In this document: in pieces, positions 10,425 to 54,172 of the stretch | Numbering within the stretch: position 1 is the stretch's first letter | Layout: each line of letters starts with the position of its first letter | Assembly: GCA_037146775.1 (NCBI GenBank) | Contig: JBAWWL010000005.1 | Coordinates: forward strand, 102,241 to 166,240 | Direction of reading: 5' to 3' | DNA: 64,000 nt | Source of the DNA: Candidatus Omnitrophota bacterium | GTDB lineage: Bacteria > Omnitrophota > Gorgyraeia > Duberdicusellales > 4484-171 | Translations under genes and position numbers: made by a program | Notes under the pieces: model-generated | Database searches by the model: none | What the model was told of the DNA's origin: nothing | The model's input: only the letters and a program-made list of their open reading frames with translations

Positions 10425-11276
10425 ATGGATCGAATTGTTACTTTTCAAGGCAATCCTTTAACTTTGGTGGGTAGAGTTTTGCGGCTCAACGCCCCTGCGC
10501 CTCAGTTTAAAACAGTTTCTACATCTTTAAAAGAGGTGAATCTTTCCGACTTTCAGGGGAAAACAAAAGTTATTACCTCTTTTCCTTCCGCGGATACTCC
10601 GGTTTGCGACTTGCAACTAAAAGAATTTAATAAAAGAGCGGTTTCATTATCTGGCGATATAGTTATTCTGGGTATTAGCAAAGATTTACCTTTTGCCCAA
10701 AAGCGGTTCTGCGAACTCAATAACATCAAAAATGTAACTACGCTTTCCGACTATAAATATTCCTCCTTCGGCTTAAATTACGGTTTACTCATTAAAGAAT
10801 TAAATCTTTTAGCCAGGGCGGTATTAGTCGTGGATAAAAATGATATATTAAGGTATATGCGCATAGTGGATGAAATAACGCAGCCGCCCAACTATGACGA
10901 TGTTTTAAAGAATCTTGAAATTGTATTGCATAATTCGGTTATCCCTCCAAAAGAGCAATTGCCCGGTCATTGCAAGCCCTGCGAGGCCGGCACCCCTGCT
11001 TTATCTAAAGAAAGAATAGAGAAGCTTCTTGTCGAACACCACGGTTGGCAATTGGTAGAAGATAGAAAATTAGTCAAAGAATTCCAGCATAAAGATTTCG
11101 CCGAAGCAAAATATTTTCTTGATATAGTCGCGCTTATCGCCGAAGAACAGGGCCATCATCCTATGATGACTATAATGTATACTAAGGTAAAAATTACGCT
11201 TACTACGCACGCATCAGGAGGGTTGACCGAAAACGATTTTATAATGGCAAAAATCATCGACGAAGTAAGGGGGTAA
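10425..11276 (+). CDS. tpx: Fusion protein: thiol peroxidase (Tpx, atypical 2-Cys peroxiredoxin) + pterin-4a-carbinolamine dehydratase (PCD/DCoH)
   Basis: The N-terminal approximately 165 aa aligns to Tpx ('VTFQGNPLTL...SFPSADTPVCDLQ...LPFAQKRFC...ARAVLVVDKND'). The C-terminal approximately 100 aa is PCD-like ('EHHGWQLVEDRKLVKEFQHKDFAEAKYFLDIVALIAEEQGHHPMMTIMYTKVKITLTTH'). RBS precedes the ATG at 10425. Confidence 0.8.
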   Translation: MDRIVTFQGNPLTLVGRVLRLNAPAPQFKTVSTSLKEVNLSDFQGKTKVITSFPSADTPVCDLQLKEFNKRAVSLSGDIVILGISKDLPFAQKRFCELNNIKNVTTLSDYKYSSFGLNYGLLIKELNLLARAVLVVDKNDILRYMRIVDEITQPPNYDDVLKNLEIVLHNSVIPPKEQLPGHCKPCEAGTPALSKERIEKLLVEHHGWQLVEDRKLVKEFQHKDFAEAKYFLDIVALIAEEQGHHPMMTIMYTKVKITLTTHASGGLTENDFIMAKIIDEVRG

Positions 11277-11277
11277 T

Positions 11278-11787
11278 ATGAGAGTTGCGGTCCTCGTGGA
11301 AGATAGCTATCAGGTTTTGGAGGTATGGTATCCGTATCTGCGTTTACGGGAAGAGACCGTTGAGACCGTATTTGTCGGAACCGGAAAAAAACATTACAAA
11401 AGTAAGGAAGGATACCCCCTGGAAGAAGAAATTTGCATTAAAGAGATAAAGGTGAGCGATTTTGACGGGGTGATCGTTCCGGGCGGTTATGCTCCGGATA
11501 TTTTACGCCGGCATAAAGAAGTAAATGATTTTGTGCGGGAGATGTTTAAGAAGAATAAATTGATAGCCGCAATCTGTCATGGCGGATGGGTGTTGATTTC
11601 TGCCGGAATATTGCAAGGTAAAAAAGTAACCTGTTTTGATGCGATTAAGGATGATATGATGAACGCCGGAGCAAAATACCGGGATGAAGAAGTGGTGACC
11701 GACGGCAATGTCATTACTTCGCGTAATCCCTATGATTTGCCCGCGTTCTGTACCCAGATAATTAAGTTTCTGGAAAAAAATAAATAG
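11278..11787 (+). CDS. DJ-1/PfpI family protein (class I glutamine amidotransferase-like)
   Basis: 'DGVIVPGGYAPD...AAICHGGWVLISAGIL' carries the nucleophile-elbow Cys motif of the PfpI/DJ-1 family. Confidence 0.85.
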   Translation: MRVAVLVEDSYQVLEVWYPYLRLREETVETVFVGTGKKHYKSKEGYPLEEEICIKEIKVSDFDGVIVPGGYAPDILRRHKEVNDFVREMFKKNKLIAAICHGGWVLISAGILQGKKVTCFDAIKDDMMNAGAKYRDEEVVTDGNVITSRNPYDLPAFCTQIIKFLEKNK

Positions 11788-28287: not shown

Positions 28288-29451
28288 TTAAGCAGGAATG
28301 ATTTTATTTTTGCCTTCGCGTTTGGCTTGATAGAGGGCGGCATCGGCTTTTTGGGCAAGCGTGTATTTGTCTGTGCCGTCTTGCGGGTAATTGGAGAGGC
28401 CGATACTGACGGTAAGCCGTGTACTTAAAATTATTTTTTCTGCTAAAGCTTTTCTAATCCGTTCTCCGGTTTGCAGCGCTTCTTCTTTGCTTGTCATCGG
28501 CAGGATAATAGAGAATTCTTCTCCTCCGTAGCGGCAGAGAATGTCTGCTTGGCGGCTATTTTCTCTTAAGACTTCGCTTACTTTTTTGAGCGCTTCATCA
28601 CCCTGGATATGTCCATGAGTATCGTTGAAGTGTTTAAAATCATCGAGGTCAATCATGATGAGCGAAAGCGGGTAATTTTTTAATTTTGCCTTTGTCAGCT
28701 CTTCGTCAAATTTATACTGAAAGTAGCCATGATTCCAGAGTGAAGTGAGCGTATCGGTGTGTACTTTGATGAGCGTATCTTCGAAGGCCCGGGAATTCTC
28801 CAGCGCCCCGGTCGCCTGTTCTACAAACATATTGAAAATACGCATGTCTGATTCCACGATCGTTTTTTTAGTCACGTAGTTGTCGACAATAATGACCCCT
28901 TGAGGTTTATCTTTGAGCCAGAGCGACGCAATCAGAAATTCCTTCAGCTGCAGTTGCTTAATAAGCGGGTCATTGCACAGCTCGAGAGTTTTCTCTTCTT
29001 TAATGTGGAGCGTGCCTTTTTCCCACAAGGTGTTAAAAATAAAACCACTTTCCGAGTTGAGCGGGAAAGAAAGTGATCGTATAAACTCTAGAAATTTCAG
29101 TTTGATTTTTCCTTCTTTAATGCAATGGTACGTTTTGATAAGGTCGTAGAGGTCCATCTTTTGTTGTTCGATACTGCGCCAGATTGTATTCGCCTCTTGC
29201 ATATCTACCGGGCCGATTCCCATAAAGCCGTCTATGGTTTTATCTCTTTCGTCGATCAAAAAGAGGCTGGCGCGGTTAAATGAAAGGCCTTCGTGGGCGG
29301 TGAGTCCGGTGAGAATGATATATGCTATTTCTTCCAACCGCAGCGTCGTTCTCATCGCCTTATTCAGTTCGTAGAAAATATAAAGCTGAGAACGGGTCTT
29401 TTCCAGCTCTTCCTGCAGTTTCTTTATCTGCTCTTCTAGTTGATATTCCAT
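28288..29451 (-). CDS. GAF-domain diguanylate cyclase (GGDEF)
   Basis: C-terminal 'RYGGEEFSIILP' GGDEF active-site motif, an upstream GAF-like domain and an N-terminal coiled coil. The start was chosen at the ATG at 29451 to avoid overlap with divergent queA. The ORF track extends to 29586. Confidence 0.75.
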   Translation of the reverse strand: MEYQLEEQIKKLQEELEKTRSQLYIFYELNKAMRTTLRLEEIAYIILTGLTAHEGLSFNRASLFLIDERDKTIDGFMGIGPVDMQEANTIWRSIEQQKMDLYDLIKTYHCIKEGKIKLKFLEFIRSLSFPLNSESGFIFNTLWEKGTLHIKEEKTLELCNDPLIKQLQLKEFLIASLWLKDKPQGVIIVDNYVTKKTIVESDMRIFNMFVEQATGALENSRAFEDTLIKVHTDTLTSLWNHGYFQYKFDEELTKAKLKNYPLSLIMIDLDDFKHFNDTHGHIQGDEALKKVSEVLRENSRQADILCRYGGEEFSIILPMTSKEEALQTGERIRKALAEKIILSTRLTVSIGLSNYPQDGTDKYTLAQKADAALYQAKREGKNKIIPA

Positions 29452-29558
29452 ATAAAATAGTAAATAACATAATTCCGGGTAAAAGTCAACTTTTCTCGCA
29501 ATCGTGAGAGTTTTATTGCTGCTTTTCTTTTCCTTACTATCTGATACAATAACCTCCC

Positions 29559-30605
29559 ATGGATGACCGTGCATTTCATATATCAAATTTTGAGTACGCC
29601 TTACCTTCCTGTTTGATCGCTCAGGAACCGGCTATGCCTCGTGATAGCTCTCGCCTTTTGATCGTTAATAGAAAAGAGCATACGATAGAAGAGGGGAGCT
29701 TTGGGGATATTGTTGCTTTTTTACACAAGGGCGACGTTTTAGTTTTGAATGATACCAGAGTGATGCGCGCAAAGCTCTTGGGTAAAAAGAAAAGCGGTGC
29801 GGTGATAGATGTTCTCCTTTTAAAAGAAAAAGATAAGAACACCTGGGAGGCGCTGGTAAAGCCAGGCAAGCGTGCCCGGATTGGAGAAACAATTCTTTTT
29901 GAGGATAACGGCCTTGCCGCTTCCGTGGTCGATACCACACCTCAGGGCGGCCGGCTTTTGCGATTTTCCTCAAGTGATGTGCCCGCGCATCTAGAGCGTT
30001 TGGGCAAGGCGCCATTACCGCCCTATATCAAAAAGGATATTGATGACGCCGATAAGTATCAAACTGTCTATGCGCGTAAACAAGGTGCGGTGGCTGCCCC
30101 GACCGCAGGCCTGCATTTTACTCCCGGCCTATTGGACGAAATTGAGAAAAAAGGCATACTTACAGTACGCATTACGCTTCATTGCGGTTTAGCTACGTTT
30201 CGGCCGGTTAAAACCGACGATATACGCAAGCACATAATAGAGCCTGAGTGGATAGAAGTTTCTTCCGAAACCGCAAAAATAGTTAATCAAGCAAAACGCG
30301 CAGGTTCGCGGATCGTTGTCGTAGGCACAACTTCCATAAGAACGTTGGAGAGTTTATCTTGTGTCGATGAACACGGGGTGGCTCTCCTTAGCCCTTTTTC
30401 GGGGGAAACTCGTCTTTATATTGTTCCCGGCTATAGTTTTAAGATGGTAGACTCGGTTATCACCAATTTTCATACTCCCCGCTCGACCAACCTTATCTTG
30501 ATTGCTTCTTTTTGCGGTCAGGATCTGTTAAAAAAAGTTTATCAGTACGCTATCAAACAAAACTTCCGTTTTTTCAGCTTTGGCGATGCCATGCTGATCG
30601 TCTAA
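29559..30605 (+). CDS. queA: S-adenosylmethionine:tRNA ribosyltransferase-isomerase
   Basis: 'FEYALPSCLIAQEPAMPRDSSRLLIV...VLVLNDTRV...' is full-length QueA-like. Confidence 0.9.
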   Translation: MDDRAFHISNFEYALPSCLIAQEPAMPRDSSRLLIVNRKEHTIEEGSFGDIVAFLHKGDVLVLNDTRVMRAKLLGKKKSGAVIDVLLLKEKDKNTWEALVKPGKRARIGETILFEDNGLAASVVDTTPQGGRLLRFSSSDVPAHLERLGKAPLPPYIKKDIDDADKYQTVYARKQGAVAAPTAGLHFTPGLLDEIEKKGILTVRITLHCGLATFRPVKTDDIRKHIIEPEWIEVSSETAKIVNQAKRAGSRIVVVGTTSIRTLESLSCVDEHGVALLSPFSGETRLYIVPGYSFKMVDSVITNFHTPRSTNLILIASFCGQDLLKKVYQYAIKQNFRFFSFGDAMLIV

Positions 30606-30737
30606 TCCTTTCGTTCAAGCCAGATTTTCAAGCAAACAGGGAGATTTTAGGCGTATCGGTAAGTTACCCGCAAGGAGCATTAAGTCATAAGTCACTCATG
30701 GTGAGCGGGTTAAAGATTAAAAAAAAGACAGTTATTG

Positions 30738-30775
30738 CATTGACGAACCGTTTTATTTCTAATATAATAAACATT
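30738..30775 (+). promoter_or_regulatory. Sigma70-like promoter upstream of the EF-G paralog
   Basis: TTGACG-N17-TATAAT ('ttgacgaaccgttttatttctaatataat'), about 100 nt upstream of the start codon. Confidence 0.45.
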
Positions 30776-30874
30776 CTACGAACAACATAACGCACCAGCC
30801 TTTTGAGGCACGCTTTTTGGGGTGAGTTGCGGCGGTGAAGGCTGTGGTGGATTTACCTACAAGGGAGGAGTGCT

Positions 30875-32884
30875 ATGCGAGAGGACCTAAATAAAAAAAA
30901 GGTTTTTCTTTTGTGTGGGCATGCTCAGTCGGGTAAGACTTCAATCTGTGAAACACTTCTTTTTAAATGTGGTGCCACCAGCCGGCTCGGTAAGATCGAC
31001 GAGGGTACCACTGTCAGTGATTACGAAGAAGACGAAAAAGAGCGCAAGAGCTCAATCAATATGTCGGTGCTTTATGCGGAATATAAAGATAATTTCTTGC
31101 AGTTTATCGATGTGCCGGGGTATCTTGATTTTATCGGTGAATTAAATTGCGCTGCCAGAGCCGTTGACTTTGCCGCCTTGGTTGTCGATGCTTCCGGCGG
31201 AGTTGAGGTGGGAACGGAAAAGGCATGGGAAATTATCAGGAAAGAAAATTTACCGTGTTTTTTTATCGTCAATAAAATCGACAAGGAAAATACCAGTTAC
31301 GAAAAAACCGTGGAAGACATTCGTAACGGTCTTACCAAAAAAGCCATACCGTTCGCTACGCCGGATAAAGGAAAGATTATCAGCGTCCTTAAAGATAAAA
31401 GTAATCCGTATTACGGACAAATTGTCGAGGCTGTTGCGGAAACCGACGATGCGCTTTTGACGAAGTATTTAGAGAAGGGTACGTTGGAGGAGCAAGAATT
31501 AATAGCAGCCCTGAAAAAGGCTGTTCTCGGTGCGCAGATTTTTCCGGTAATTCCTTTTACGGCTCTCCAGGCACAGGGTATAGATACGCTTTTAGAAACA
31601 CTTTTAGAAGATATGCCCTCGGTTGCTCAAGGCCGGCCGCGGCAGGCAAAGAATACCAAGACAAATGAGATGGTAACCATCGAACCAAAAACCAACGCCC
31701 CATTAGCCATGCAAATTTTTAAAACAGTAATTGATCCGTTTGTCGGCCAGCTGAATATTTTCAGGGTTTTTGCAGGCAAGATCGCGTCAGGCTCTGAAGT
31801 TATGAATTCTAGCAAGAAAGAAAAAGAAAAAATCAGTCAGTTGTATCTTATGCAGGGAAAACAACAAGTTCCCCAGGAAGCACTCTGCAGCGGAGATATA
31901 GGAGCGTTGGCAAAACTGAGGGTCACTACTACGCAGGATACATTCTGTGAAGTTAACAATCCGCTTGAGTTTTCGTTAATAGAATTTCCTCTTCCTTCTT
32001 TTTCTGCTTCGGTGAAGCCAAAAACGCGCCAGGATGAAGATAAAATTTCCAGCGTGCTTTCTCGTCTTACCAGCGAAGATCAAACGTTTAAGGTATCGAG
32101 AGACTCACAGACTAAAGAGCTGATTATTTCTGGTATGGGAGAACTGCACCTGCACGTTATTATTGAACGAATGAAAAGAAGATATCAGGCAAATGTTGAG
32201 CTGGGAACGCCGAAAGTCGCATACCTGGAAACAGTCACCCGTTCGATTAAAGTGCAGGGCAAACATAAGAAACAATCCGGCGGCCGCGGCCAATACGGTG
32301 ATTGCTGGATAGAAGTTGAACCTAGAGAGCGCGGTAAAGGCTTTGAGTTTGTAGATAAAATATTTGGTGGCGCTATTCCGCGTAACTTTATTCCTTCTGT
32401 TGAGAAAGGGATAGTAAAAGCGCTCGACGAAGGAATACTTGCGGGTTATCCCGTCACTGATTTGAGAGTTATCCTCGTCGACGGTTCATATCACGACGTA
32501 GACTCTTCCGATATTGCTTTTCAGATAGCCGGTTCAATGGCATTTAAGAAAGCGCTTGAGCAAGCCGGCAGCGTGCTTCTTGAGCCGATTATGAACGTTG
32601 AGATCGTTGCTCCGGAAGAATTTATGGGCCAGATTACCGGTGATATTAATGCTCGCCGCGGAAGAGTAATGGGGATGGAAGTAAAAGGCAGAAATCAAGT
32701 AGTGAAAGCCCAAGTACCCCAGGTGGAAATGTTTAAGTATGCCTCCGATCTGCGTTCGTTTACCGGCGGACGGGGGAGTTATTCGATGCATTTCTCTCAT
32801 TACGAGATTGTTCCCGGCCGCCTATCTCAGGCAATTGTTGAGGGCGCAAAGAGAGAAACCGAAAAGGTTGCGAAGGTAGAATGA
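30875..32884 (+). CDS. Divergent EF-G family translational GTPase (EF-G paralog)
   Basis: G1 'GHAQSGKTS', G3 'DVPGYLDF', G4 'NKID'. Domains II-V are EF-G-like ('...ISGMGELHLHVIIERMKRRY...'). Confidence 0.8.
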   Translation: MREDLNKKKVFLLCGHAQSGKTSICETLLFKCGATSRLGKIDEGTTVSDYEEDEKERKSSINMSVLYAEYKDNFLQFIDVPGYLDFIGELNCAARAVDFAALVVDASGGVEVGTEKAWEIIRKENLPCFFIVNKIDKENTSYEKTVEDIRNGLTKKAIPFATPDKGKIISVLKDKSNPYYGQIVEAVAETDDALLTKYLEKGTLEEQELIAALKKAVLGAQIFPVIPFTALQAQGIDTLLETLLEDMPSVAQGRPRQAKNTKTNEMVTIEPKTNAPLAMQIFKTVIDPFVGQLNIFRVFAGKIASGSEVMNSSKKEKEKISQLYLMQGKQQVPQEALCSGDIGALAKLRVTTTQDTFCEVNNPLEFSLIEFPLPSFSASVKPKTRQDEDKISSVLSRLTSEDQTFKVSRDSQTKELIISGMGELHLHVIIERMKRRYQANVELGTPKVAYLETVTRSIKVQGKHKKQSGGRGQYGDCWIEVEPRERGKGFEFVDKIFGGAIPRNFIPSVEKGIVKALDEGILAGYPVTDLRVILVDGSYHDVDSSDIAFQIAGSMAFKKALEQAGSVLLEPIMNVEIVAPEEFMGQITGDINARRGRVMGMEVKGRNQVVKAQVPQVEMFKYASDLRSFTGGRGSYSMHFSHYEIVPGRLSQAIVEGAKRETEKVAKVE

Positions 32885-33570
32885 AGATAGCTACATTCGG
32901 TCTTGAGATACAACCTGGCAAATACAAATATACCTGCGAGTGTTTCGAAAAACTAGTTAAAAAGTTTTCACCGAAGAAAGAAACGCCCTATACGGTTGAA
33001 TGTGTTGGTGACGATTATGTCAAAGCCGATGCTATTGTGTTTGACAGCAATAAAAAATTGGATTTTATTTTTATCGATTTAGAAAAAATAGAAAACCGTG
33101 CCATGAGAACCGGTGAAGAGCAGGAGAAATTATTTCTTAAAAAATGCCAGGATCTGCTTGAGAAAGAGGAGCTTCTTTGCGAGCAGCAGTTTAGCGCTTC
33201 GGAGCAATCTTTTCTGAAAAATATTTCACCAGTAACATACAAGCCTTGTCTTGGGGTTCCGGCAGTCGAACATATAAATAAGCTTATCGAAGAGCTCATG
33301 CGTAAAGCCGGCGTCATACTTTTTTTTACTGCCGGAGAAAAGGAAGTCCATGCATGGGAAGTGGCGCGTGGCTCTACGATTGTTGAGGCCGCCGGTAAAA
33401 TTCATACCGACCTGGCCAGGGGTTTTATTAAGGGAGAAGTCACGCAATGCAAAGACTTGGATAAATTTTTTAATATGGCAGAGGCACGGGCTAAAGGATT
33501 CGTGAAAGTCGTTGATAAAAACTATATTATGGAAGAAGGCAATATCATTGAAATAAAATTCAGCGTCTAA
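32881..33570 (+). CDS. YchF/Ola1-like protein with degenerate G-domain and intact C-terminal TGS-like (YchF_C) domain
   Basis: The C-terminus 'FFTAGEKEVHAWEVARGSTIVEAAGKIHTDLARGFIKGEV...GNIIEIKFSV' closely parallels the YchF C-terminus. The N-terminal 'GLEIQPGKYKYT' stands in place of the P-loop 'GLPNVGKST'. It is translationally coupled (ATGA) to the EF-G paralog. Confidence 0.6.
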   Translation: MKIATFGLEIQPGKYKYTCECFEKLVKKFSPKKETPYTVECVGDDYVKADAIVFDSNKKLDFIFIDLEKIENRAMRTGEEQEKLFLKKCQDLLEKEELLCEQQFSASEQSFLKNISPVTYKPCLGVPAVEHINKLIEELMRKAGVILFFTAGEKEVHAWEVARGSTIVEAAGKIHTDLARGFIKGEVTQCKDLDKFFNMAEARAKGFVKVVDKNYIMEEGNIIEIKFSV

Positions 33571-33573
33571 CGG

Positions 33574-33600
33574 CACAGATTACAAAATCTGTGTAATCAG
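33574..33600. promoter_or_regulatory. Palindromic ACAGATT/AATCTGTGTAATC motif immediately upstream of purH
   Basis: 'cacagattacaaaatctgtgtaatcag' contains the exact 13-mer 'aatctgtgtaatc' (33586-33598) also found upstream of folE. Confidence 0.4.
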
Positions 33601-33609
33601 TGGTTTATT

Positions 33610-35124
33610 ATGTTAAAAATAAGAAGAGCTTTGATCAGTGTGTGGGAAAAAAAGGGTTTGGTTGAGTTCGCGCGAAAATTAGCCGAATGGAAGGTTGAGA
33701 TAATTTCTACCGGTAAAACCGCAACCATGCTGCGCTCCAGCGGCATCCCCGTTAAGGACGTATCCGCCGTTACTTCGTTTCCCGAAATTCTTTCCGGAAG
33801 AGTTAAAACTCTGCATCCAAAAATATTTGGCGGTATATTGGCGAACAAAAAACACCCTTTACACATGGAGGAGATAAAAAACCTGAGTATCCAGCCGATC
33901 GATATGACGGTAGTTAACCTGTATCCATTTATGCAAAAAATTGGTTCAAAATTGAACTTTGACGAAATGATGGAATATGTCGACATCGGCGGCTGTGCGT
34001 TGCTTCGGGCTTCGGCAAAGAATTTCAAAAATGTCGCCTGTCTCAGTTCCCCAGCGCATTATAAACTCGTACTTGAGGAGATGGAAAAAAATAAGGGCGA
34101 TATTAGCGAGGAGACACTTAAGTTTCTCGCACAAGAGGCTTTTTATGTAACCAAAGAATACGATTCCTGTATCTACAATTATTTTTCCGGCAGGGAAGTA
34201 TTGAATTGGGATTTGGAAAAGATAAATTCGCTGCGTTACGGAGAGAATCCCCATCAGACAGGAGCTCTTTATAAAACGGCCAAGGCCCAGGAATTAAAGT
34301 ATACACAGCTTCAGGGTAAAGAATTATCCTTCAATAATCTTCTTGATTTGGATACCGCCTTTATTATTGTGAGGGATTTTGTCGAGCCGGCAGTGGCTAT
34401 CGTCAAGCACGCTTCTATCTGCGGCGTGGGTGTTGACAGGCGCTTGCCGCACGCCTACAAAAAAGCCTATGTAGCCGATCCTATCTCCAGCTTCGGCGGT
34501 ATTGTCGGCATTAACAGGAAAGTTGACAAAGATACCGCCCAGCAATTTATAAAAAGCGATTTTAAGGAATGCGTGATTGCTCCTTCTTATTCTAAAGAGG
34601 CACTTAAGATTTTTTCTTCCAAGAAAAACCTGAGAGTACTCGAGGCAGATTTTCATCAGAAATTGAGTTATCAAGATATTAGGGCGACCGTTTTTGGCTA
34701 TCTCGTCCAGGACAGAGACGCTTTGCTTTTAGAAAAGGCAAGCATGAAGGTGGTTACGAAAAGAAAACCGACACAACAAGAACTTAAAGATATGTTTTTT
34801 GCCTGGAAGATTGCTAAATACGTAAAATCAAATGCTATTGTGATCGCTAAAAATGTTACTGTGTTAGGTATTGGAGGGGGGCAGCCGTCGCGAGTGGGCG
34901 CGGCGAAAATTGCTCTAGATCGTGCAGGAAAATCCTGCCGTGGGGCAGTGATTGCTTCCGATGGCTTTTTCCCAAAAGAAGATTCATTAAAAGTTGCGTA
35001 TAAAAAAGGGATCAGAGCCGTAATACAGCCAGGCGGCTCGATCAAAGACAATGACCTTATTGCGCTTTGTAATAAACTCAAAATAAGCATGGTATTTACG
35101 GGTATACGCCACTTCCGCCACTAA
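33610..35124 (+). CDS. purH: Bifunctional AICAR transformylase / IMP cyclohydrolase
   Basis: The MGS-like N-terminus 'RALISVWEKKGLVEFARKLAEWKVEIISTGKTA' followed by the AICARFT domain. Confidence 0.9.
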   Translation: MLKIRRALISVWEKKGLVEFARKLAEWKVEIISTGKTATMLRSSGIPVKDVSAVTSFPEILSGRVKTLHPKIFGGILANKKHPLHMEEIKNLSIQPIDMTVVNLYPFMQKIGSKLNFDEMMEYVDIGGCALLRASAKNFKNVACLSSPAHYKLVLEEMEKNKGDISEETLKFLAQEAFYVTKEYDSCIYNYFSGREVLNWDLEKINSLRYGENPHQTGALYKTAKAQELKYTQLQGKELSFNNLLDLDTAFIIVRDFVEPAVAIVKHASICGVGVDRRLPHAYKKAYVADPISSFGGIVGINRKVDKDTAQQFIKSDFKECVIAPSYSKEALKIFSSKKNLRVLEADFHQKLSYQDIRATVFGYLVQDRDALLLEKASMKVVTKRKPTQQELKDMFFAWKIAKYVKSNAIVIAKNVTVLGIGGGQPSRVGAAKIALDRAGKSCRGAVIASDGFFPKEDSLKVAYKKGIRAVIQPGGSIKDNDLIALCNKLKISMVFTGIRHFRH

Positions 35125-35240
35125 CCCAAAAAATGCATGCTTCGCAGGCATTTTTTGGGTTAATCTTTCTTTTTAAAAATATCACTCTGCTATTCGGAAT
35201 AAAAAACTATCGAAACAGATTTTAAAAAGTTCCACCGTCT

Positions 35241-36593
35241 ATGAAGCCGACAAAGATACATAGTTTTTCCGACGCCCAAGCCTATCTAAACAGCTTTGTT
35301 AACTATGAGCGTAACGTTAAATTTCCTTATGCGAAAACATTAAAATTAGACCGCGTCGAAACTCTTCTCGAGCGCCTGCGTATTTCTTATCAGTCCTTGA
35401 GAGTGATCCATATTGCCGGGACAAAAGGTAAGGGCTCAACCGCGTATTTCTGTGCGCACGTATTAGCCGCTTCCGGCTTTCGTGTGGGTTTGTATACCTC
35501 GCCGCATTTTTTTAATTTTAGGGAACGGATTGTGATCAAGAAGCCTGTGTGTAGCGGCCAGAGAACGGTGGTAAAAGATACTTGTATCGCAGAAAAGGAT
35601 GTGGTGGAGATAGTGCGTGGTATGCAACCAGAGCTGGAACGCTTACGTTATAAAAAAACGTTAGGGATGTTGAGCTTCTTTGAGGTATATACCGCTATAG
35701 CCTTTACATATTTTCTTAAAAACCATCTCGACTTTGTTGTCTTAGAAACCGGCCTCGGCGGCCGCCTCGACGCCACCAATGTCGTAACGCCTTTGTGTTC
35801 CGTTATCACTCATATCGGCTATGATCATATTGATACGCTTGGCACTTCTCTGGCCAGTATCGCGCGGGAAAAAGCCGGCATTATCAAACATGCGGTCCCG
35901 GTGATTGTCGCTTCACAGAGGGTATCCGTTTATCGTCAGATTCGTAAACGCGCTCTAAAGCAAAGGACTCCGGCATTTTTTTTCGGCCGCGAGATAAAGG
36001 CAACAGAGATCCGGCTTGGGAAAAACAGCACCACTTTTAATTTTCATTATAACGGTATTGCTTTGAAAAACATAAAAATATGTCTTCGCGGAAAATATCA
36101 AATCGAGAACGCCTCTTTAGCCATAGCGTCAATTATGGTATTGCAGCAACAGGGATATGTGAGAGGTTCCGTACTTTTTCGGCAAGGGCTTCGTGATGCA
36201 TTTGTGGCGGGGAGGTTCGAGACGGTTAAAAGAAACCCTCTGATCGTTGTCGATGTCGCGCACAATCCTTCTGCGTTTACCGCTTTGGCAGAAAATCTGA
36301 AATTATATTTTCCCGCAAAAAAAATAATTCTTATTTTTGCCGCCTCCCGCGATAAAGATGTCCGGCACATGCTCGATAAAATAAAATACACACAGCTTAT
36401 CCTTACCCGTTTTTCTAACCCCAGGTCATTTACGCCGGACGAGATAAGGTCGCGATGCCGTATAAAAAATACCTTGATAGCCAGTGACGTTAAGGAGGCC
36501 TTGGGTATGGCGAGACAGTTCTGTACCCGCGAACACGCGATCGTGATTAGCGGCTCGTTGTTTTTGGTAAGTGAGGCAAAAAGAATAGTGTAG
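35241..36593 (+). CDS. folC: Folylpolyglutamate synthase / dihydrofolate synthase
   Basis: Mur ligase fold with P-loop 'HIAGTKGKGST' and 'VLETGLGGRLDATNV'. Confidence 0.85.
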   Translation: MKPTKIHSFSDAQAYLNSFVNYERNVKFPYAKTLKLDRVETLLERLRISYQSLRVIHIAGTKGKGSTAYFCAHVLAASGFRVGLYTSPHFFNFRERIVIKKPVCSGQRTVVKDTCIAEKDVVEIVRGMQPELERLRYKKTLGMLSFFEVYTAIAFTYFLKNHLDFVVLETGLGGRLDATNVVTPLCSVITHIGYDHIDTLGTSLASIAREKAGIIKHAVPVIVASQRVSVYRQIRKRALKQRTPAFFFGREIKATEIRLGKNSTTFNFHYNGIALKNIKICLRGKYQIENASLAIASIMVLQQQGYVRGSVLFRQGLRDAFVAGRFETVKRNPLIVVDVAHNPSAFTALAENLKLYFPAKKIILIFAASRDKDVRHMLDKIKYTQLILTRFSNPRSFTPDEIRSRCRIKNTLIASDVKEALGMARQFCTREHAIVISGSLFLVSEAKRIV

Positions 36594-36704
36594 CCCATAA
36601 GGCGTTCAGTCAACGATCGGTGCGCCACCAGCTTCCCATAATCCGTTTACTGTGCCGACTTTATCGATAGACTTTCTGGAGACTTTGCACTACAATACAT
36701 AGCT

Positions 36705-38147
36705 ATGTATTATGGCCAATTGAAAAATTATAATTGTAAAGACACTATTGCTGCGATTGCGACATTTCCTGCCCAGTCAGCCATAGGTATCATTAAGATT
36801 TCCGGCAAACGTGCGATCTCTATTGTGTCAGGGGTTTTTCTATCCCGGAAAAAGAAGGATCTCAAAAAAGTAAAAACATATACATTGCATTACGGCTGGA
36901 TCGTAGAGAAATTAAAAGTAAAAAATCAAAAATCAAAAAAGAACGTAATGGTCGACGAAGTTTTGGTAAGCGTAATGAAAGGGCCTCGTTCATATACCAA
37001 AGAAGATGTTGTCGAGATATCCTGTCATGGCGGGCCGGCGGTATTACAGAAAATTTTAGAAATTATAATCCAACAAGGAGCGCGGCCGGCCTCGCCGGGG
37101 GAATTTACCTACCGAGCTTTTGTAAACGGCAGAATTGACCTCTTACAGGCGGAGGCGATAGCCAGTATCGTAGAAGCAAAAACTTCACATTCGCTTGAGC
37201 CGGCGATGCAGCAGCTAAGAGGCGAGGCTTCCGTCCGTTTGCAGGAGATAAAAGAAACGATAAAAGAACTTTTTAGCCACACTCAAGCACTGCTTGATTT
37301 TCCCGAAGATAATATCACGCTGAGCGTTTCTGCTGTTACCAAGAGGCTTGTCGTGGTCAAGAAAAAGCTGGATGCCATGCTCCAGGGCGGCACACGGGCC
37401 AGGATACTTAAGGAGGGTTTACGTTGTGTTATCTGCGGTAAAACTAACGTAGGCAAGTCGACTCTTTTTAATCGCCTCTTGAACCAGGAACGCGTTATTG
37501 TCAGCCGATTACCCGGTACTACCCGGGATGTTGTCGAAGAAACTATTTCCATAAGGGGCGTTCCTTTGCGTATATATGATACTGCGGGGATCCTTGAGCC
37601 GAAAGATTTGGTTGAAAAAAAAGCTGTTGAAAAATCATCACACGCTTTCCAGGAAGCGGATATGGTGCTTTTGATGCTTGATGGTTCGCGCAAACTGCAA
37701 AAAGCCGATAGATTTCTTTTAGAAAAGATTACGCAGGCGGTAAAAGCAGATACGGGCAAAAAAGTCATCGTTATTATTAATAAAACCGATTTGCGGCAGA
37801 AATTGGTGTGTGAGAATTTAACGGGAGCTTGTGTCCGTCTGGTGCGGGTGAGTGCCTTGAGGGATAAAGGAATTAAGAGTTTAGAGAAGGCAATAGTTGA
37901 CCTTGTCTATAAAGAGGGATTAAAGAGGGACGATATTATTTTTTTAAATCAGCTGCAGCGCAGAACCCTGGAAGAAGCAAATCTCAGCATAGCCGAAGCC
38001 CTTGAATATCTACGAAAAAGTTATACGATAGATTTTGTGCAGGCATCGTTGCAACAAGCCATTGATGCCATAGGCAGGATTAGCGGCGCGATACCCAACG
38101 AGGAAATTCTCAAAGAAATATTCAGTAGATTCTGTATCGGCAAATGA
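36705..38147 (+). CDS. mnmE: tRNA modification GTPase MnmE (TrmE)
   Basis: G-domain 'ICGKTNVGKSTLFN...DTAG', N-terminal THF-binding domain, and the C-terminal 'CIGK' motif. Confidence 0.9.
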   Translation: MYYGQLKNYNCKDTIAAIATFPAQSAIGIIKISGKRAISIVSGVFLSRKKKDLKKVKTYTLHYGWIVEKLKVKNQKSKKNVMVDEVLVSVMKGPRSYTKEDVVEISCHGGPAVLQKILEIIIQQGARPASPGEFTYRAFVNGRIDLLQAEAIASIVEAKTSHSLEPAMQQLRGEASVRLQEIKETIKELFSHTQALLDFPEDNITLSVSAVTKRLVVVKKKLDAMLQGGTRARILKEGLRCVICGKTNVGKSTLFNRLLNQERVIVSRLPGTTRDVVEETISIRGVPLRIYDTAGILEPKDLVEKKAVEKSSHAFQEADMVLLMLDGSRKLQKADRFLLEKITQAVKADTGKKVIVIINKTDLRQKLVCENLTGACVRLVRVSALRDKGIKSLEKAIVDLVYKEGLKRDDIIFLNQLQRRTLEEANLSIAEALEYLRKSYTIDFVQASLQQAIDAIGRISGAIPNEEILKEIFSRFCIGK

Positions 38148-38204
38148 GCACACAATAGACATCCCGCAAAGATCAGGATGTCTTGATTAAGAAGATTAGG
38201 GCAA

Positions 38205-38316
38205 GATTACACAGATTGTTTTAGAGAGAATCCCGCACATTTTGTTTAGAAACTCTTAATCTGTGTAATCGATTTTAAATCAGTGTAATCAGGTATAATC
38301 TTAATAAATTATACCT
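38205..38316. promoter_or_regulatory. folE leader: 13-bp perfect inverted repeat of the AATCTGTGTAATC motif plus -10-like palindrome
   Basis: 'gattacacagatt' (38205-38217) and 'aatctgtgtaatc' (38258-38270) are exact reverse complements. 'gtgtaatcag' occurs again at 38284-38293. 'ggTATAATcttaataaattatacc' holds a TATAAT inside an 8-bp inverted repeat. Confidence 0.4.
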
Positions 38317-38339
38317 AAAGATTATACCAGGAGGCAAAA

Positions 38340-38897
38340 ATGGATAAGAAGAAAATTCAAAAGGGTGTAACGTTAATATTGGAAGCGGTCGGCGCGGATT
38401 TGGGAAAAAAAGATATTGGGACCACTCCGCAGCGTGTCGCTGAAATGTACGAAGAAATACTGGCCGGGCAATTTAGCAGCGCGGAAGATGAGTTGGAAGT
38501 AGTGTTGGAACAGAAGCATGACGAAATAATCCTGCTTAAAGATATACCGCTTTATTCGCTGTGTGAGCACCATCTTCTCCCTTTTATGGGTAAAGCGCAT
38601 GTTGCTTATATTCCTGATGAGCGTATAACCGGTTTAAGTAAAATTGCCAGGGTAGTGGACGTGCTTTCCAAGCGTTTACAGGTTCAGGAGCGGCTTACCA
38701 CCGAAATTGCCGACGTGATCATGAAAAAACTTAAGCCCAAAGGGGTTATGGTAGTTATAGAAGCGGAACATTTGTGTATGTCTATGCGGGGAGTGAAAAA
38801 ACCAGGAACGCTGACTACTACTTCTGTGGTCAGGGGGGTATTTCGAACCAATCAAAAAACTCGCCAGGAAACTTTAAGTTTAATCAGCACGCGCTGA
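38340..38897 (+). CDS. folE: GTP cyclohydrolase I
   Basis: '[11 protein letters not shown]...[19 protein letters not shown]...' shows the FolE catalytic motifs. Confidence 0.9.
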
Positions 38898-50821: not shown

Positions 50822-52273
50822 GTGACGGCTGCAAAGTGCGGGTTAGAAAAAAATATGCGCGCAAAAATCGACGCTCGTTTAAAAAATCTAGTAGTACGTC
50901 TGGCAAAAAGCAATAAAGGTTTGGGGGTGCGTTTATTGGCCAAACTTATCAAAGAGAAACACGGGATTGCTCTTTCTAAAAGCGCCGTACAGAATATTTT
51001 TAAGCAAGGGCATATAAAGCAATCAAGGGGGAGGAAAACTTATCTTTCGCGCTATCAACGCAAAGATATTGTTCCCTGCGGATTTTTGCTGCTTAAAGCC
51101 ATAGATTCTCAAGTCGGGCTCTTTGATTTACTTACGGACCAACTACGAATGTATTTTGCGCGCATGCAGCCGGCATTATTGAAAAAAATCATTATGCTGG
51201 TTACTTTTTCTTCCTATCAAGGCCTCACCACCAAAGTGTCCGCACGGGAACCCGGTTTCTTACGTATCACAGATCTACGCTCTTACCCTGCCAGAAAAGT
51301 TAAGTTTTTTCTCTCGCGCATCGCCGACTACAAGCCCTTAGTGACTGTTGAAAAAATAAAGCCTCTGCTTGAGCCTGTTTCGACAGTAAAATTCTACTTT
51401 GGTAATAACACCGTAGGTTATACCGACGCTAATTTTTCTACTATTTGGGACAGCCCTTGCCGTATTAGCCATTTTTTTCAACCCTATTATTATGTGCTTT
51501 CGAGGCTTTCGGCTATGCTTCGAGACCAGACACTCATTCTTTATTATACGCAAAGTTTTAATTATCTTTCGCCTTTAGTGGTAAGTTTTATCGATGGTTT
51601 AGCTACGGGCATTACCAAGGTAGAATTGCTTGGCCCCAGTGGTGCAGTTATACACCAAGAAAACCATGCTATCCCTAAGCTTTCTTTCTTGATCGGCTAT
51701 TATCCCAAGATAATCGCAAAAGGAATGACCTTTTTAGAGAAAGAGCAGCATTTTAAAAAAGTGGAGGGCTTTTGGCAAGATTTGTCTTACGCGTATATTC
51801 TTACCCGATTTTCGCAGCCCAAAGGGAACAAAGGAATCATCACAAACAGTATTCTGGTAAAAACCATAAAGAAATCTCTTCCTTCCTGGGCTGTGCTTAC
51901 CGATAAAAGGACTAATATCGCCGCACTACTGAAACGTTATTTGTTACTCTGGCCGTATCGGGAAAAGACGTTTCTTGAAGATATGAAAATTATCGAGCGC
52001 TCTTACGTTTTTGAGGAAAGTAAGAAAGATACTCAGTTGCCTGCCCTCACAAGCCTCACCCTAGAGAAAGAATCGGATTTTCTCCATATTGCCGAACTAT
52101 TAGCCGCTCTTTTTAGCGCGCGTGTAGCCCAAGCAAAGTTTAAAGAATTGTCGGGCGAATATGTAACAGGTAAGGAATCCTGCCGGTTGGTTATCACCAG
52201 CCCCCCGGCGTTTAAGGAAAAATTTAACATGAATTGTTTCTTTCTTGGTGGTAAACGCGTTATTTTGCTCTAA
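50822..52273 (+). CDS. Hypothetical soluble protein embedded in the Tad locus (N-terminal HTH-like segment)
   Basis: 483 aa with no TM helices and no recognised domain. The N-terminal 'LGVRLLAKLIKEKHGIALSKSAVQNIF' looks HTH-like. A start at ATG 50855 is also possible. Confidence 0.4.
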   Translation: MTAAKCGLEKNMRAKIDARLKNLVVRLAKSNKGLGVRLLAKLIKEKHGIALSKSAVQNIFKQGHIKQSRGRKTYLSRYQRKDIVPCGFLLLKAIDSQVGLFDLLTDQLRMYFARMQPALLKKIIMLVTFSSYQGLTTKVSAREPGFLRITDLRSYPARKVKFFLSRIADYKPLVTVEKIKPLLEPVSTVKFYFGNNTVGYTDANFSTIWDSPCRISHFFQPYYYVLSRLSAMLRDQTLILYYTQSFNYLSPLVVSFIDGLATGITKVELLGPSGAVIHQENHAIPKLSFLIGYYPKIIAKGMTFLEKEQHFKKVEGFWQDLSYAYILTRFSQPKGNKGIITNSILVKTIKKSLPSWAVLTDKRTNIAALLKRYLLLWPYREKTFLEDMKIIERSYVFEESKKDTQLPALTSLTLEKESDFLHIAELLAALFSARVAQAKFKELSGEYVTGKESCRLVITSPPAFKEKFNMNCFFLGGKRVILL

Positions 52274-52606
52274 GTCTGCCTTGTCCTCTCCAGGGGTACT
52301 GCCTCTTGGAAGTATTTTTCACTGCTTTCCGCGCAGCAATTATTTTAGATTTTACCAGAAATACCGTAAAATTTACCCAAAAAAGAGTATCCATTCCGTA
52401 TTCCAAAAACCCCCACGATTTCCCGATCTTACGAGAGATTAATTTTTTGATAGAAGAATAGACGATTATATTCACTATAAACGATTTCAAAAATATCCTT
52501 TCTCATTCTTAGACTATCTTTCTGCGTATTGGGAAAATAGCCAAATTCGGCAATACCAGATTGAATTTTTTAAAAAGTAAACGCTTCCAAAAATTGCTTA
52601 TCCTAC

Positions 52607-52643
52607 CTTGATTTACGCGTAAAAAATATGGTATACTTAGTTG
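52607..52643 (+). promoter_or_regulatory. Putative sigma70 promoter for the pilin array
   Basis: 'cTTGATTtacgcgtaaaaaatatggTATACTtag' is a -35-like element, an approximately 18-nt spacer and a -10 TATACT. Confidence 0.4.
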
Positions 52644-52788
52644 TGAATTAGGAGGCGACGAAAAGGCAATTCCCGGTGTAAGCCGGGATGCGCAAAGCCA
52701 CGGGTCCCGAACGTTTGCAGGTTGTAGGTAATAAGTATTAATTTAAGTGTCTATACTTATCACCTACATATTAATGAAGGAAAGGGAT

Positions 52789-52840
52789 AGCCGAGCTGCC
52801 GAACGTCTCGAAAGAGCGGCAGTTCGGCTATTTTTATTTT
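52789..52840 (+). promoter_or_regulatory. Strong hairpin + U-run in the pilin leader (attenuator/terminator-like), directly before the first pilin RBS
   Basis: 'agccgagctgccgaacgtctcgaaagagcggcagttcggct' is a 13-bp stem, followed by 'atttttatttt' and then 'aggagg'. Confidence 0.4.
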
Positions 52841-52854
52841 AGGAGGCCAAAAAG

Positions 52855-53160
52855 ATGAAAACAAAAAAGATATCGGCGCAGTCAGTCATTGAATATATTT
52901 GCGTAACCATGGTGTTTGCTGCCGTGGGTATAGGAACTTTTGTTGCGGCAAACCATGCGGCAGTAGCGAATCTGCGCGGTCATGGCACCAACTATCAGTC
53001 TCAGACTAACCTTATGGGTCAAACCACCTATGCCGGTATCGACAAAGAACAATACAACTGGCCTTCTACTTGGGATCAGGCATATCCGGGAACAAGCAGC
53101 AAGCAGGTTCGCCAATTTGTGGATAATCCGGAACAAACTTCAGGACAAGGAGGAGAGTAA
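52855..53160 (+). CDS. Flp/Fap-family type IVb prepilin-like protein 1
   Basis: 'MKTKKISA|QSVIEYICVTMVFAAVGIG' has a class III signal-peptide motif (A|QSxxEY) plus a hydrophobic helix. Confidence 0.7.
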   Translation: MKTKKISAQSVIEYICVTMVFAAVGIGTFVAANHAAVANLRGHGTNYQSQTNLMGQTTYAGIDKEQYNWPSTWDQAYPGTSSKQVRQFVDNPEQTSGQGGE

Positions 53161-53339
53161 TGTTAGCCCATATCAGAAAATCAAAGGCGCAGAGTATTCT
53201 TGAATACGTGTCGTTAACGCTTATTGTATGGGGAGCGTTGTCGGCAATGACATTTTATATTCAGCGGGCGATGGAAGTAAGGACCCGGCATCTTAACCAG
53301 GAATTAAACGAGAATGCCAGAGGAAATGGGATGATTTAA
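53160..53339 (+). CDS. Flp-like prepilin 2 (59 aa, below ORF-track cutoff)
   Basis: ATG overlaps the previous stop (taATG). 'MLAHIRKSKA|QSILEYVSLTLIVWGAL'. Confidence 0.6.
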   Translation: MLAHIRKSKAQSILEYVSLTLIVWGALSAMTFYIQRAMEVRTRHLNQELNENARGNGMI

Positions 53340-53353
53340 AAGGAGCGAGAAAC

Positions 53354-53800
53354 ATGAAGCAACATAACCATAAAATCATGGCTCGAGGGCAAAGCATAAC
53401 AGAGTATTTGATCGTGTTAGCAGCTATTATCGGCGCTATTGTGGCCAGCACTATCGGCATACGTTATGGGGTAAACAGAGGTATGAAGACCGTTAATGAA
53501 AAATTTGAAAAAGGCATTGCTACCAGCAGCGTTCCGGGAAAGCAAAAGGCATATTTACAAACGGAAGAGTCTTACGATGATTCAAGACAGCATAAAACTG
53601 ACCCGGCATGGGAAAACACCGATCAGCCAGGAGGCCCTCAGTATACTGGTGGCTATGAATATGAGGAGTGGGTGCGTAATAATCCCGACAGCGCTTACAA
53701 TGCGCCGGAAGATGGGAAAACATTATATGATACCGGCGTTAAACCGTATCCGGCAAAAAATTATTGGGTAGGCAATGTCAGGGGGCAGAAAGGTAAGTAG
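53354..53800 (+). CDS. Flp-like prepilin 3 with extended C-terminal domain
   Basis: 'MARG|QSITEYLIVLAAIIGAIVA'. 148 aa. Confidence 0.7.
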   Translation: MKQHNHKIMARGQSITEYLIVLAAIIGAIVASTIGIRYGVNRGMKTVNEKFEKGIATSSVPGKQKAYLQTEESYDDSRQHKTDPAWENTDQPGGPQYTGGYEYEEWVRNNPDSAYNAPEDGKTLYDTGVKPYPAKNYWVGNVRGQKGK

Positions 53801-53808
53801 GCGTTTTT

Positions 53809-53973
53809 ATGTATAGAAAAACAAAAGCACAGAGTTTTATCGATTATGCAGCGTTAATTGCGATTATTGTGGTATCGCTGCTAGCCATGTCCGGCTATGT
53901 TATGCGGTCAATTAACGCGAGGGTTGCCCACATGTGGGCGGATTTATATCATCCACAAAACGGAGTAAGGTAG
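53809..53973 (+). CDS. Flp-like prepilin 4 (54 aa, below ORF-track cutoff)
   Basis: 'MYRKTKA|QSFIDYAALIAIIVVSLLAM', identified by manual translation. Confidence 0.6.
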   Translation: MYRKTKAQSFIDYAALIAIIVVSLLAMSGYVMRSINARVAHMWADLYHPQNGVR

Positions 53974-53989
53974 GAGGAGGTGAGTTGTA

Positions 53990-54172
53990 ATGGTTAAGAA
54001 GGCGCAGAGTATTCTCGAGTACGTCATCGTTCTTTCAGCTATCGTAGCAGCAGTTATCGCAATGGCAAGAGGTCCGGTAACGCAGGCGGTAAACAAAATG
54101 TTTACTGATTCATCTAACGTGATCCAGGAGAAGTCGGGCATTTTTTATCAGCAGTCAGCCGGTGGTAAGTAA
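53990..54172 (+). CDS. Flp-like prepilin 5
   Basis: 'MVKKA|QSILEYVIVLSAIVAAVIA'. Confidence 0.7.
   Translation: MVKKAQSILEYVIVLSAIVAAVIAMARGPVTQAVNKMFTDSSNVIQEKSGIFYQQSAGGK

Follow-up and report, generated by a model that had tools for sequence, protein, structure and literature searches.

The locus analyzed here raises the question which proteins two overlapping genes of a Candidatus Omnitrophota bacterium encode, and whether these proteins belong together functionally. The genes are located on contig JBAWWL010000005.1 (assembly GCA_037146775.1), in a stretch of 64,000 nucleotides (nt) here referred to as the window. A gene for an EF-G-like protein of 669 amino acids (aa) is followed there by a gene for a 229-aa relative of YchF, here named mini-YchF. 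Both open reading frames (ORFs) and their ATGA overlap were present as claimed in the initial annotation, and independent public gene calls (GCA_964613555.1, contig CAZTHQ010000014.1) gave the same coordinates and the same two products. With positions counted within the window, the pair is composed as follows:

30875 to 32884, plus strand: EF-G-like gene (669 aa).
32881 to 33570, plus strand: mini-YchF gene (229 aa), a P-loop-less YchF homolog annotated as 'DUF933 domain-containing protein'.
32881 to 32884, plus strand: ATGA stop/start overlap of both genes, with four shared bases.

Judged by its sequence, the 669-aa protein is a member of the EFG II/EF-G2 subfamily and is here referred to as EF-G2. 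Mini-YchF is, by domain and motif content, a miniaturised P-loop-less YchF that is homologous to the YchF ATPase family without being one of its members. The EFG II type of EF-G is already known; what seems to be new is mini-YchF. As the explanation that accounts best for the locus as a whole we propose a co-transcribed EFG II/EF-G2 together with a nucleotide-independent, ribosome-binding mini-YchF. We regard this explanation as probable, albeit with clear reservations.

The 229-aa protein is composed of three parts that could be placed on the YchF fold:

32899 to 32931, plus strand: vestigial P-loop region GLEIQPGKYKY (aa 7–17), without Walker A motif, predicted as a beta-hairpin and unaligned by hhalign.
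33046 to 33225, plus strand: helical (coiled-coil) domain (aa 56–115), aligned to the YchF helical domain with a deletion of 12 residues at the tip.
33316 to 33561, plus strand: TGS/YchF-GTPase_C domain (aa 146–227), matched by PF06071 (E = 6.3e-28) and PF02824 (E = 2.2e-07).

The C-terminal similarity to YchF_C/TGS that had been noted initially was confirmed by these Pfam matches, of which PF06071 reached 97.2 bits against a cutoff of 27. The TGS domain shared 42–49% identity with its counterparts in full-length YchFs, and the signature IHTDLARGFI is conserved in the mini-YchF family. The YchF model TIGR00092 gave 99.5 bits against a cutoff of 279.2 and matched with its profile positions 266–367 only. 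Thus, the coverage of YchF domains by hidden Markov models (HMMs), proposed initially as a check, is limited to the C-terminus.

A more extensive homology was found by hhalign against full-length YchF (probability 100%, E = 1.5e-46). Mini-YchF keeps the beta2-beta3 segment as well as the helical and TGS domains. Switch II/G3 and the G domain's whole second half, with G4 NxxE and G5, are deleted, and residues 1–19 remained unaligned. In YchF the G4 motif (N/T)(M/L/V)xE gives the preference for ATP (PMC11814078). An AF2 model of mini-YchF had a pLDDT of 93.9 and superposed over the whole 229 residues, with TM scores of 0.69–0.81 (query-normalised), on crystal and cryo-EM structures of YchF/OLA1. 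In the helical domain the model contains helices at residues 56–76, 80–94 and 106–115. Conserved in this domain are the basic residues K69, R73, R76, K83 and K88 as well as the acidic residues D61, D66, E68, E71, E82, E94 and E96.

The N-terminal stretch GLEIQPGKYK (aa 7–16) does not fit Walker A, with five residues instead of four in front of GK and a Tyr in place of Ser/Thr. In the AF2 model the GLEIQPGKYKY region forms a beta-hairpin and not a loop followed by a helix. The family carries the motif G-x-[DE]-L-P-E-G-K-x-K-[YF] in place of the P-loop. Walker A (GxxxxGK[ST]) was present in 9/9 full-length relatives and in 0 of at least 55 short homologs. The initial annotation had described the P-loop as degenerate. 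The absence of a Walker A motif is confirmed, but the description understated the loss, since according to hhalign all nucleotide-binding motifs are gone. Because of these lost motifs and the TIGR00092 score far below its cutoff, mini-YchF is not expected to be a YchF-type ATPase.

A database search with the 229-aa protein identified 457 homologs, and nearly all of the top 120 were exactly 229 aa long. These 229-aa homologs are annotated as 'DUF933 domain-containing protein' and originate mainly from Candidatus Omnitrophota. The members of the corresponding AlphaFold database cluster bore names of metagenome-assembled genomes only. In a scan of one genome per species, a mini-YchF of about 229 aa was found in more than 10 phyla beyond Omnitrophota. 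The carriers were Elusimicrobiota, Desulfobacterota/Syntrophobacterales, Acidobacteriota, Lentisphaerota/Victivallales, Kiritimatiellota, Calditrichia, Marinimicrobia, Hydrogenedentes, Latescibacteria, Poribacteria, Margulisbacteria, Scalindua and others. An exhaustive profile search yielded about 40 clusters (50% identity) of 225–235-aa proteins that matched end to end; below these, canonical YchFs of 330–370 aa matched by their TGS domain only. An identical 229-aa protein was present on an independent assembly, and no YchF-like remnants were found in the other frames of the 64-kb window. The searchable literature on DUF933 and short YchF contained no description of a short, P-loop-less YchF. 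Mini-YchF is a widespread family that seems to be undescribed.

Two different full-length YchF-like genes were found about 4 kb apart (5173–6297 and 10550–11647) in an Anaerolineae locus (L079, JAXGYO010000002.1). They encode proteins of 374 aa and, for the canonical type, 365 aa, both with Walker A. The TGS identity to mini-YchF was 45–49% for the non-canonical type of this locus and for a 340–346-aa planctomycete type (L064, L070–L076), and 42% for the canonical type. Since the TGS domains of non-canonical YchFs are slightly closer, mini-YchF may descend from a YchF paralog.

The EF-G-like protein contains all five EF-G domains in the Pfam scan (GTP_EFTU, EF-G_D2, EFG_III, EFG_IV and EFG_C), which bears out the domain order described initially. 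Its best NCBIfam model was NF009381 (PRK12740.1-5, 'elongation factor G') with 844.9 bits against a cutoff of 583. It stayed below the cutoffs of the canonical EF-G equivalog TIGR00484 (636.9 vs 659.4) and of the EF-G2 equivalog NF009377 (554.6 vs 890), and passed that of one 'elongation factor G' equivalog, NF009891 (609.8 vs 597). The clear match to NF009381 together with the failure on NF009377 points to an EFG II-like subgroup other than that of NF009377 itself. The similarity to canonical EF-G is unevenly distributed: against Thermus EF-G1 the core G domain reached only 75 bits and residues 174–657 (G' to domain V) 474 bits. Searched alone, the G domain was nearest to Thermus thermophilus EF-G2 (1wdt), with which it has the segments GHAxSGKT, EGTTxxDY, D.PGY.DF[IV]GE and GVxVGTExAW in common. 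The canonical EF-G marks AHIDAGKT, RGITI and DTPGH all differ in the window protein, and its gene is located outside the str operon, between queA and purH.

A comparison with EF-G1, EF-G2, Tet and BipA, suggested in the initial annotation and carried out here as HMM scores, identified an EF-G paralog of the EFG II/EF-G2 type. The EFG II subfamily is thereby extended to Omnitrophota. Ribosome protection of the Tet(M)/Tet(O) type, one of the functions initially considered, is excluded by scores far under the cutoffs (NF012153 tet_protect, 313.9 vs 775). BipA/TypA (149 vs 757 bits), LepA (124 vs 534 bits) and RF3 (140 vs 473 bits) were rejected as identities as well. The characteristic motifs of the G domain are:

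30917 to 30940, plus strand: G1/P-loop GHAQSGKT (aa 15–22), which fits the EFG II consensus GhxxxGKT and is kept in 10 orthologs.
31043 to 31057, plus strand: switch I/G2 RKSSI (aa 57–61), which replaces RGITI and matches the RxxSI of EFG II subgroups.
31109 to 31123, plus strand: G3 DVPGY (aa 79–83) with Tyr for the catalytic His, aligned to DTPGH of Thermus EF-G1 and DAPGY of Thermus EF-G2.

EFG II has been defined by a G1 of the form GhxxxGKT, in which Gly takes the place (position 16 of 1wdt) that Ala has in EFG I (Margus et al. 2011, PMC3150367). In G2 of EFG II, RGITI has loosened to xxxSx, the Mg-coordinating Thr is exchanged for Ser, and RxxSI is found in several subgroups; Leu at position 25 of 1wdt is present in 99% of EFG II (PMC3150367). 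Over aa 15–23 the window protein reads GHAQSGKTS. At the equivalent of 1wdt position 25 it carries Ile (GKTSI), a conservative change from the Leu of most orthologs (GKTSL). The initial annotation had called G1 and switch I atypical. GHAQSGKTS is present and RGITI is indeed replaced, but since both GHAQSGKT and RKSSI fit the published definitions, these motifs are a subfamily signature and not a novel divergence. G3 DVPG (aa 79) and G4 NKID (aa 133) are intact, and the tip loops of domain IV are canonical (GGRGQYG at aa 469, SYHDVDSS at aa 538). All EFG II-type G-domain motifs were kept in 10 orthologs from related loci, including RKSSIN and an invariant Tyr in G3. This conservation indicates that the G domain is under selection and not decaying. 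The exchange of the catalytic His for Tyr had gone unnoticed in the initial annotation. EF-G2 of M. smegmatis likewise has Tyr for the catalytic His, displays a ribosome-dependent GTPase activity that is minimal, and plays a stress-related role; the exchange H88Y in M. smegmatis EF-G1 almost abolished the GTPase activity (bioRxiv 10.64898/2026.05.25.727771).

Upstream of the pair the following elements were found:

30740 to 30768, plus strand: sigma-70-type promoter-like site TTGACG-N17-TATAAT, with the -35 element at 30740–30745 and the -10 element at 30763–30768.
30769 to 30874, plus strand: putative 5' leader, with a Shine-Dalgarno sequence GGGAGGAG at 30863–30870.

The site TTGACG-N17-TATAAT, already named in the initial annotation, scored 11/12 and was the best promoter-like site of the region. 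In 10/10 loci a TTGACN-N17-TATAAT site was located upstream of the orthologous EF-G2 gene at a distance of no more than 350 nt, with a spacer of constantly 17 nt and a perfect -10 element. By shuffling, the chance of an 11/12 site per locus was 0.2–2.6%, and none was present in 50 coding control windows. TTGACN-N17-TATAAT was nearly unique on the plus strand of each 12–16 kb locus. In most loci no strong promoter-like site followed downstream of the one preceding EF-G2, and no comparable site was found between EF-G2 and mini-YchF or between mini-YchF and purH. The window also contained no terminator on the plus strand after mini-YchF and before purH. The site presumably acts as a promoter. Because of its conservation, and since neither a further site nor a terminator separates the genes from each other or from purH, EF-G2 and mini-YchF are very likely co-transcribed, and the transcript may continue into purH.

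The putative leader showed no evident regulatory element, so that only the promoter part of the initial description is retained. No Rfam family matched it at E <= 1 except for a chance snoRNA match, its fold was not better than that of shuffled sequences (z = -0.44), and the leader length varied among EF-G2 orthologs from 25 to 229 nt. A structured or regulatory leader RNA was rejected on these three results.

The next question is how far the pairing extends. An EF-G2 ortholog was located directly upstream of mini-YchF in 12 loci (L001–L010, L061 and L062). All of them are of Omnitrophota type although some are labelled otherwise, so the pairing is kept in related genomes, as an examination of gene neighbourhoods, proposed initially, revealed. 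The spacing between the two genes ranged from -4 to +188 nt: an overlap of -4 or -1 nt was found in 5/11 orthologous loci, and the remaining gaps were 3–188 nt. In the paired loci the block queA-EFG2-miniYchF-purH-folC-mnmE-folE is syntenic, and the synteny comprises eight consecutive genes. Approximately 50 other mini-YchF loci, including the Omnitrophota-labelled loci L017, L018 and L026, had no EF-G within 6 kb. The adjacency to EF-G2 is inseparable from plain inherited synteny, and represents a lineage-specific operon arrangement that is confined to one Omnitrophota subclade.

Other ribosome-associated neighbours were found in two further lineages. In five loci of a Desulfobacterota-like lineage (L039, L041, L042, L055 and L057) a YhbY-like gene and ettA are located upstream of mini-YchF; the EttA next to it scored 960 bits and the gaps were 19–88 nt. 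In a single locus (L025) typA/bipA (835 bits) precedes mini-YchF with a gap of 29 nt. Acidobacteriota carry leuS near mini-YchF and holA on the opposite side; these two genes are frequently clustered in bacteria. A general linkage of mini-YchF to translation genes was rejected, since only three lineage-specific cases (EF-G2, EttA/YhbY-like and BipA) were present. Mini-YchF thus came to lie next to ribosome-binding factors in no fewer than three lineages, which fits a ribosome-related role but is no family-wide rule.

Some of the paired loci deserve a remark on their labels and their gene integrity. The contig of L006 (JAIWAR010000030.1) is labelled 'Methanosarcinales archaeon' and holds the bacterial, Omnitrophota-type EF-G2/mini-YchF/purH/folC/mnmE/folE block; it is probably a binning contaminant. 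In the literature, Omnitrophota are described as preying on methanogenic archaea. Several metagenome-assembled genomes of 'uncultured Planctomycetia' share the block as well (labels in doubt: L003, L004, L008 and L062), which suggests that these labels are wrong. L003 and L062 have their EF-G2 gene broken up into two ORFs, and the mini-YchF ORF of L007 is cut to 133 aa. Frameshifts, pseudogenes or assembly errors may each account for these forms.

How might the two proteins act? According to the proposed mechanism, the sigma-70-type promoter would drive EF-G2 and subsequently the overlapping mini-YchF as a conserved transcription unit. Going by its motifs, EF-G2 has kept both a conserved GTP-binding site (G1, G3 DxPG and G4 NKID) and a domain IV with a canonical tip. 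It would bind at the usual factor site of the ribosome and serve either as a translocase that is slow or poorly activated in its GTPase, or as a stress factor, beside the EF-G of the str operon, a role modelled on the reports for EF-G2 of Thermus, Mycobacterium and Bacteroides. Mini-YchF would neither bind nor hydrolyse ATP. Like YchF, it would bind the ribosome through its helical and TGS modules, independently of nucleotide, and would affect the association or splitting of the ribosomal subunits. YchF of E. coli docks at the 50S interface at uL14/bL19/H62, chiefly via its helical domain, and promotes or maintains the splitting of the subunits; a contact with 16S h5 has been proposed for its TGS domain (PMC11814078). 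By analogy, ribosome binding is assumed for both EF-G2 and mini-YchF.

Some observations weigh against this mechanism. EF-G2 of Thermus, which has the Tyr too, is reportedly active in GTP hydrolysis and translocation (PMC3150367; bioRxiv 10.64898/2026.05.25.727771), so that a poor GTPase activity of the window EF-G2 is uncertain. No other EF-G was present in the 64-kb window. The helical tip of mini-YchF, which in E. coli YchF contacts H62, is 12 residues shorter, and because of this the docking mode on the 50S subunit may differ or be lost. Finally, the neighbourhood of mini-YchF is not related to translation in most phyla, and 20/20 further tightly linked neighbours were unrelated to it.

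The identity of both proteins could be questioned. The 229-aa ORF might be a decaying or frameshifted ychF, that is a pseudogene or an assembly artefact, a case already considered in the initial annotation. YchF models match the C-terminal 100 aa or so only and the N-terminal 'P-loop' is broken, as would be expected then. Yet length and start are shared by hundreds of homologs from more than 10 phyla, the N-terminal motifs are conserved, the high-confidence fold is compact over all 229 residues, the independent assembly carries the same protein, and the window is free of remnants in other frames. Family-wide conservation of length and motifs and the lack of any other YchF-like coding remnant in the window rule out a frameshifted ychF, and we give this case practically no weight. 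For EF-G2, the corresponding question is whether it represents the sole and primary EF-G of the organism instead of a paralog. Domains II–V very near to canonical EF-G1 (474 bits), canonical tip loops of domain IV, the passed NF009891 cutoff and a window without a further EF-G would agree with this, and the KO tables of two Omnitrophota genomes give K02355 merely as present. On the other hand, every EFG II signature is found, the score remains below the TIGR00484 cutoff, and published surveys find EFG II unable to replace EFG I alone (PMC3150367). Furthermore, complete Omnitrophota chromosomes carry a canonical S12-S7-EF-G-EF-Tu operon (bioRxiv 10.64898/2026.06.07.730766). As the window gene is located off this operon, between queA and purH, it is most likely a second copy beside the canonical EF-G, and a role as the only EF-G appears improbable.

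A stronger and a weaker reading of the functional relationship have to be weighed as well. In the stronger one, EF-G2 and mini-YchF need each other as functional or physical partners on the ribosome; hydrolysis-sparing rescue, splitting or hibernation would be examples of their common task. The stop/start overlap, the single conserved promoter and an adjacency that persists in 12 loci, even where mini-YchF identity is as low as 37% (L061), speak for such a partnership. Both proteins derive from ribosome-binding NTPases and are attenuated as NTPases, other lineages pair mini-YchF with ribosome-binding factors (yhbY-ettA in five loci, typA/bipA in one), and TGS domains and EF-G domain II both touch the h5/h15 area of 16S rRNA (PMC3150367, PMC11814078). 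It is weakened by the approximately 50 loci elsewhere, and by L017, L018 and L026, that lack a nearby EF-G, by the unconserved intergenic distance and by the eight syntenic genes, through which adjacency may be mere inheritance. EFG II is moreover widespread in bacteria (PMC3150367, PMC4342817) for which no linked mini-YchF was seen in this analysis. The dedicated ribosome module suggested in the initial annotation therefore stands as far as the conservation of pair and promoter is concerned, but not in its exclusiveness: the pairing is restricted to one Omnitrophota subclade, overlaps in about 5/11 loci and has no boundary before purH. Given this narrow pairing, the variable gaps and the open end to purH, we consider a dedicated two-protein module possible and obligate partnership rather unlikely. 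The adjacency is lineage-specific synteny, and nothing in it speaks for an obligate two-protein machine. In the weaker reading mini-YchF is no ribosome factor at all, and its TGS/helical cleft binds nucleic acid, tRNA or a small molecule in a function outside translation. The mostly unrelated neighbourhoods and the shortened H62-contacting tip are in line with this, and for YchF, termed multifunctional, nucleic-acid binding in the helical/TGS cleft has been proposed (PMC11814078). However, the two retained domains are precisely those implicated in ribosome contact and their charged residues are conserved, and adjacency to EF-G2, to EttA with a YhbY-like gene and to BipA in three lineages is unlikely to arise by chance. 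We thus view a non-ribosomal function as doubtful and prefer the co-transcribed EF-G2 with a ribosome-binding mini-YchF.

Whether mini-YchF also takes the place of YchF is a more far-reaching question. YchF/OLA1 belongs to the small set of P-loop NTPases that almost all genomes encode, and what it does is still under debate. The ortholog K06942 (ychF) was present in 99.4% of bacterial genomes outside the candidate phyla radiation (CPR) (PMC12641178 supplement). In the 'KO counts per genome' of Seymour et al. 2023, the lists of two Omnitrophota genomes (IDs 58 and 231) do not include K06942, and both include obg, der, era, lepA, hflX and fusA. The absence covers just these two genomes, and annotation thresholds have an influence on it. 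It suggests that some Omnitrophota are without a recognisable full-length YchF, and mini-YchF may accordingly be its replacement. Neither a full-length ychF nor a canonical fusA was present in the 64-kb window. Omnitrophota had fewer ribosome biogenesis factors than even CPR in a survey that covered over 30,000 genomes (PMC12641178), which is consistent with an unusual repertoire of translation factors in this phylum. We put forward only tentatively, as a rather unlikely extension, that mini-YchF is an undescribed nucleotide-independent descendant of YchF which replaces the YchF ATPase in Omnitrophota and perhaps in others, and which, together with the His-to-Tyr EF-G2 that is co-transcribed in one Omnitrophota subclade, provides a binding-based control of translation.

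If this were true, a binding-based and hydrolysis-free control would suit energy-limited, host-dependent nanobacteria. A widespread ATPase-free YchF that retains the helical and TGS modules would reveal functions of YchF that are independent of hydrolysis, and mini-YchF would offer a minimal ribosome-binding scaffold for structural work. Should it be the sole YchF homolog in Omnitrophota, the 'universal' ATPase would be dispensable as an enzyme throughout a phylum. EF-G2 alone adds little, and its stable co-transcription with mini-YchF hints at a condition-specific role of EF-G2 in translation.

The genomic surroundings of the pair consist, in order, of SMC, a GGDEF protein on the minus strand, queA, EF-G2/mini-YchF, purH, folC, mnmE and folE. 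The GGDEF protein is the only one of the flanking genes that is not co-directional. The conserved co-directional block around the pair (29559–38897, plus strand) contains the tRNA wobble-modification genes queA and mnmE and the folate/purine genes purH, folC and folE. It possibly represents a supercluster for translation, tRNA modification and folate. As mechanically listed, the ORFs of the GGDEF protein (28288–29586, minus strand) and of queA (29559–30605, plus strand) overlap at their 5' ends by 28 nt. This overlap disappears in the public annotation, where queA starts 75 nt later (323 aa). At 52655–52803 on the plus strand, within the ORF-poor stretch 52273–55358, a c-di-GMP-I riboswitch aptamer was found with 40.5 bits (Rfam RF01051, gathering score 35).

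Compared with known systems, EF-G2 of the window is most similar to the EFG II/EF-G2 type (Thermus EF-G2, PDB 1wdt/2dy1; M. smegmatis EF-G2, 9k0z/9k10). Common to both are five domains with G', the GhxxxGKT motif with Gly, the RxxSI switch I, DxPG followed by Tyr, GVxVGTExAW and a gene that lies off the str operon. Unlike in Thermus EF-G2, domains II–V are much nearer to canonical EF-G1 (551 bits to Thermus EF-G1 vs 423 to Thermus EF-G2). The Bacteroides-type EF-G2 (NF058620; PDB 7uvp/8dmf, deposited as 'TetQ' and presumably of this identity) is also an EF-G paralog with a divergent G domain, for which slow translocation has been reported (as cited in bioRxiv 10.64898/2026.05.25.727771). Its G3 (DCPGS in 7uvp) is without the catalytic His, as is that of the window EF-G2. 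In contrast to this type, the window protein scored 517 against the NF058620 cutoff of 1000 and retains NKxD and the switch I Ser, where 7uvp has NQLD and YGYSV. Tet(M)/Tet(O), BipA, LepA and RF3 are kin within the translational GTPase superfamily and have the G domain and domains II, III and V in common with it; unlike them, the window protein bears an EF-G domain IV with canonical tip loops.

For mini-YchF a functional parallel can be drawn to RsfS, a small, non-NTPase, nucleotide-independent 50S anti-association factor that docks near uL14. The two are not homologous; the parallel is proposed as an analogy only, and the contact of mini-YchF with uL14/bL19 would be part of it. By homology, the YchF/OLA1 ATPase (TIGR00092, K06942; PDB 1jal, 2ohf, 2dby, 8kie) is the known system nearest to mini-YchF. 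Compared with it, mini-YchF is about 135 residues shorter overall and 12 residues shorter in the helical tip, and it has lost Walker A, switch II/G3, G4 NxxE and G5. Both nevertheless have one fold and one domain order, with a sheet (a remnant in mini-YchF), an inserted helical domain and a C-terminal TGS domain that carries the signature IHTDLxRGFI.

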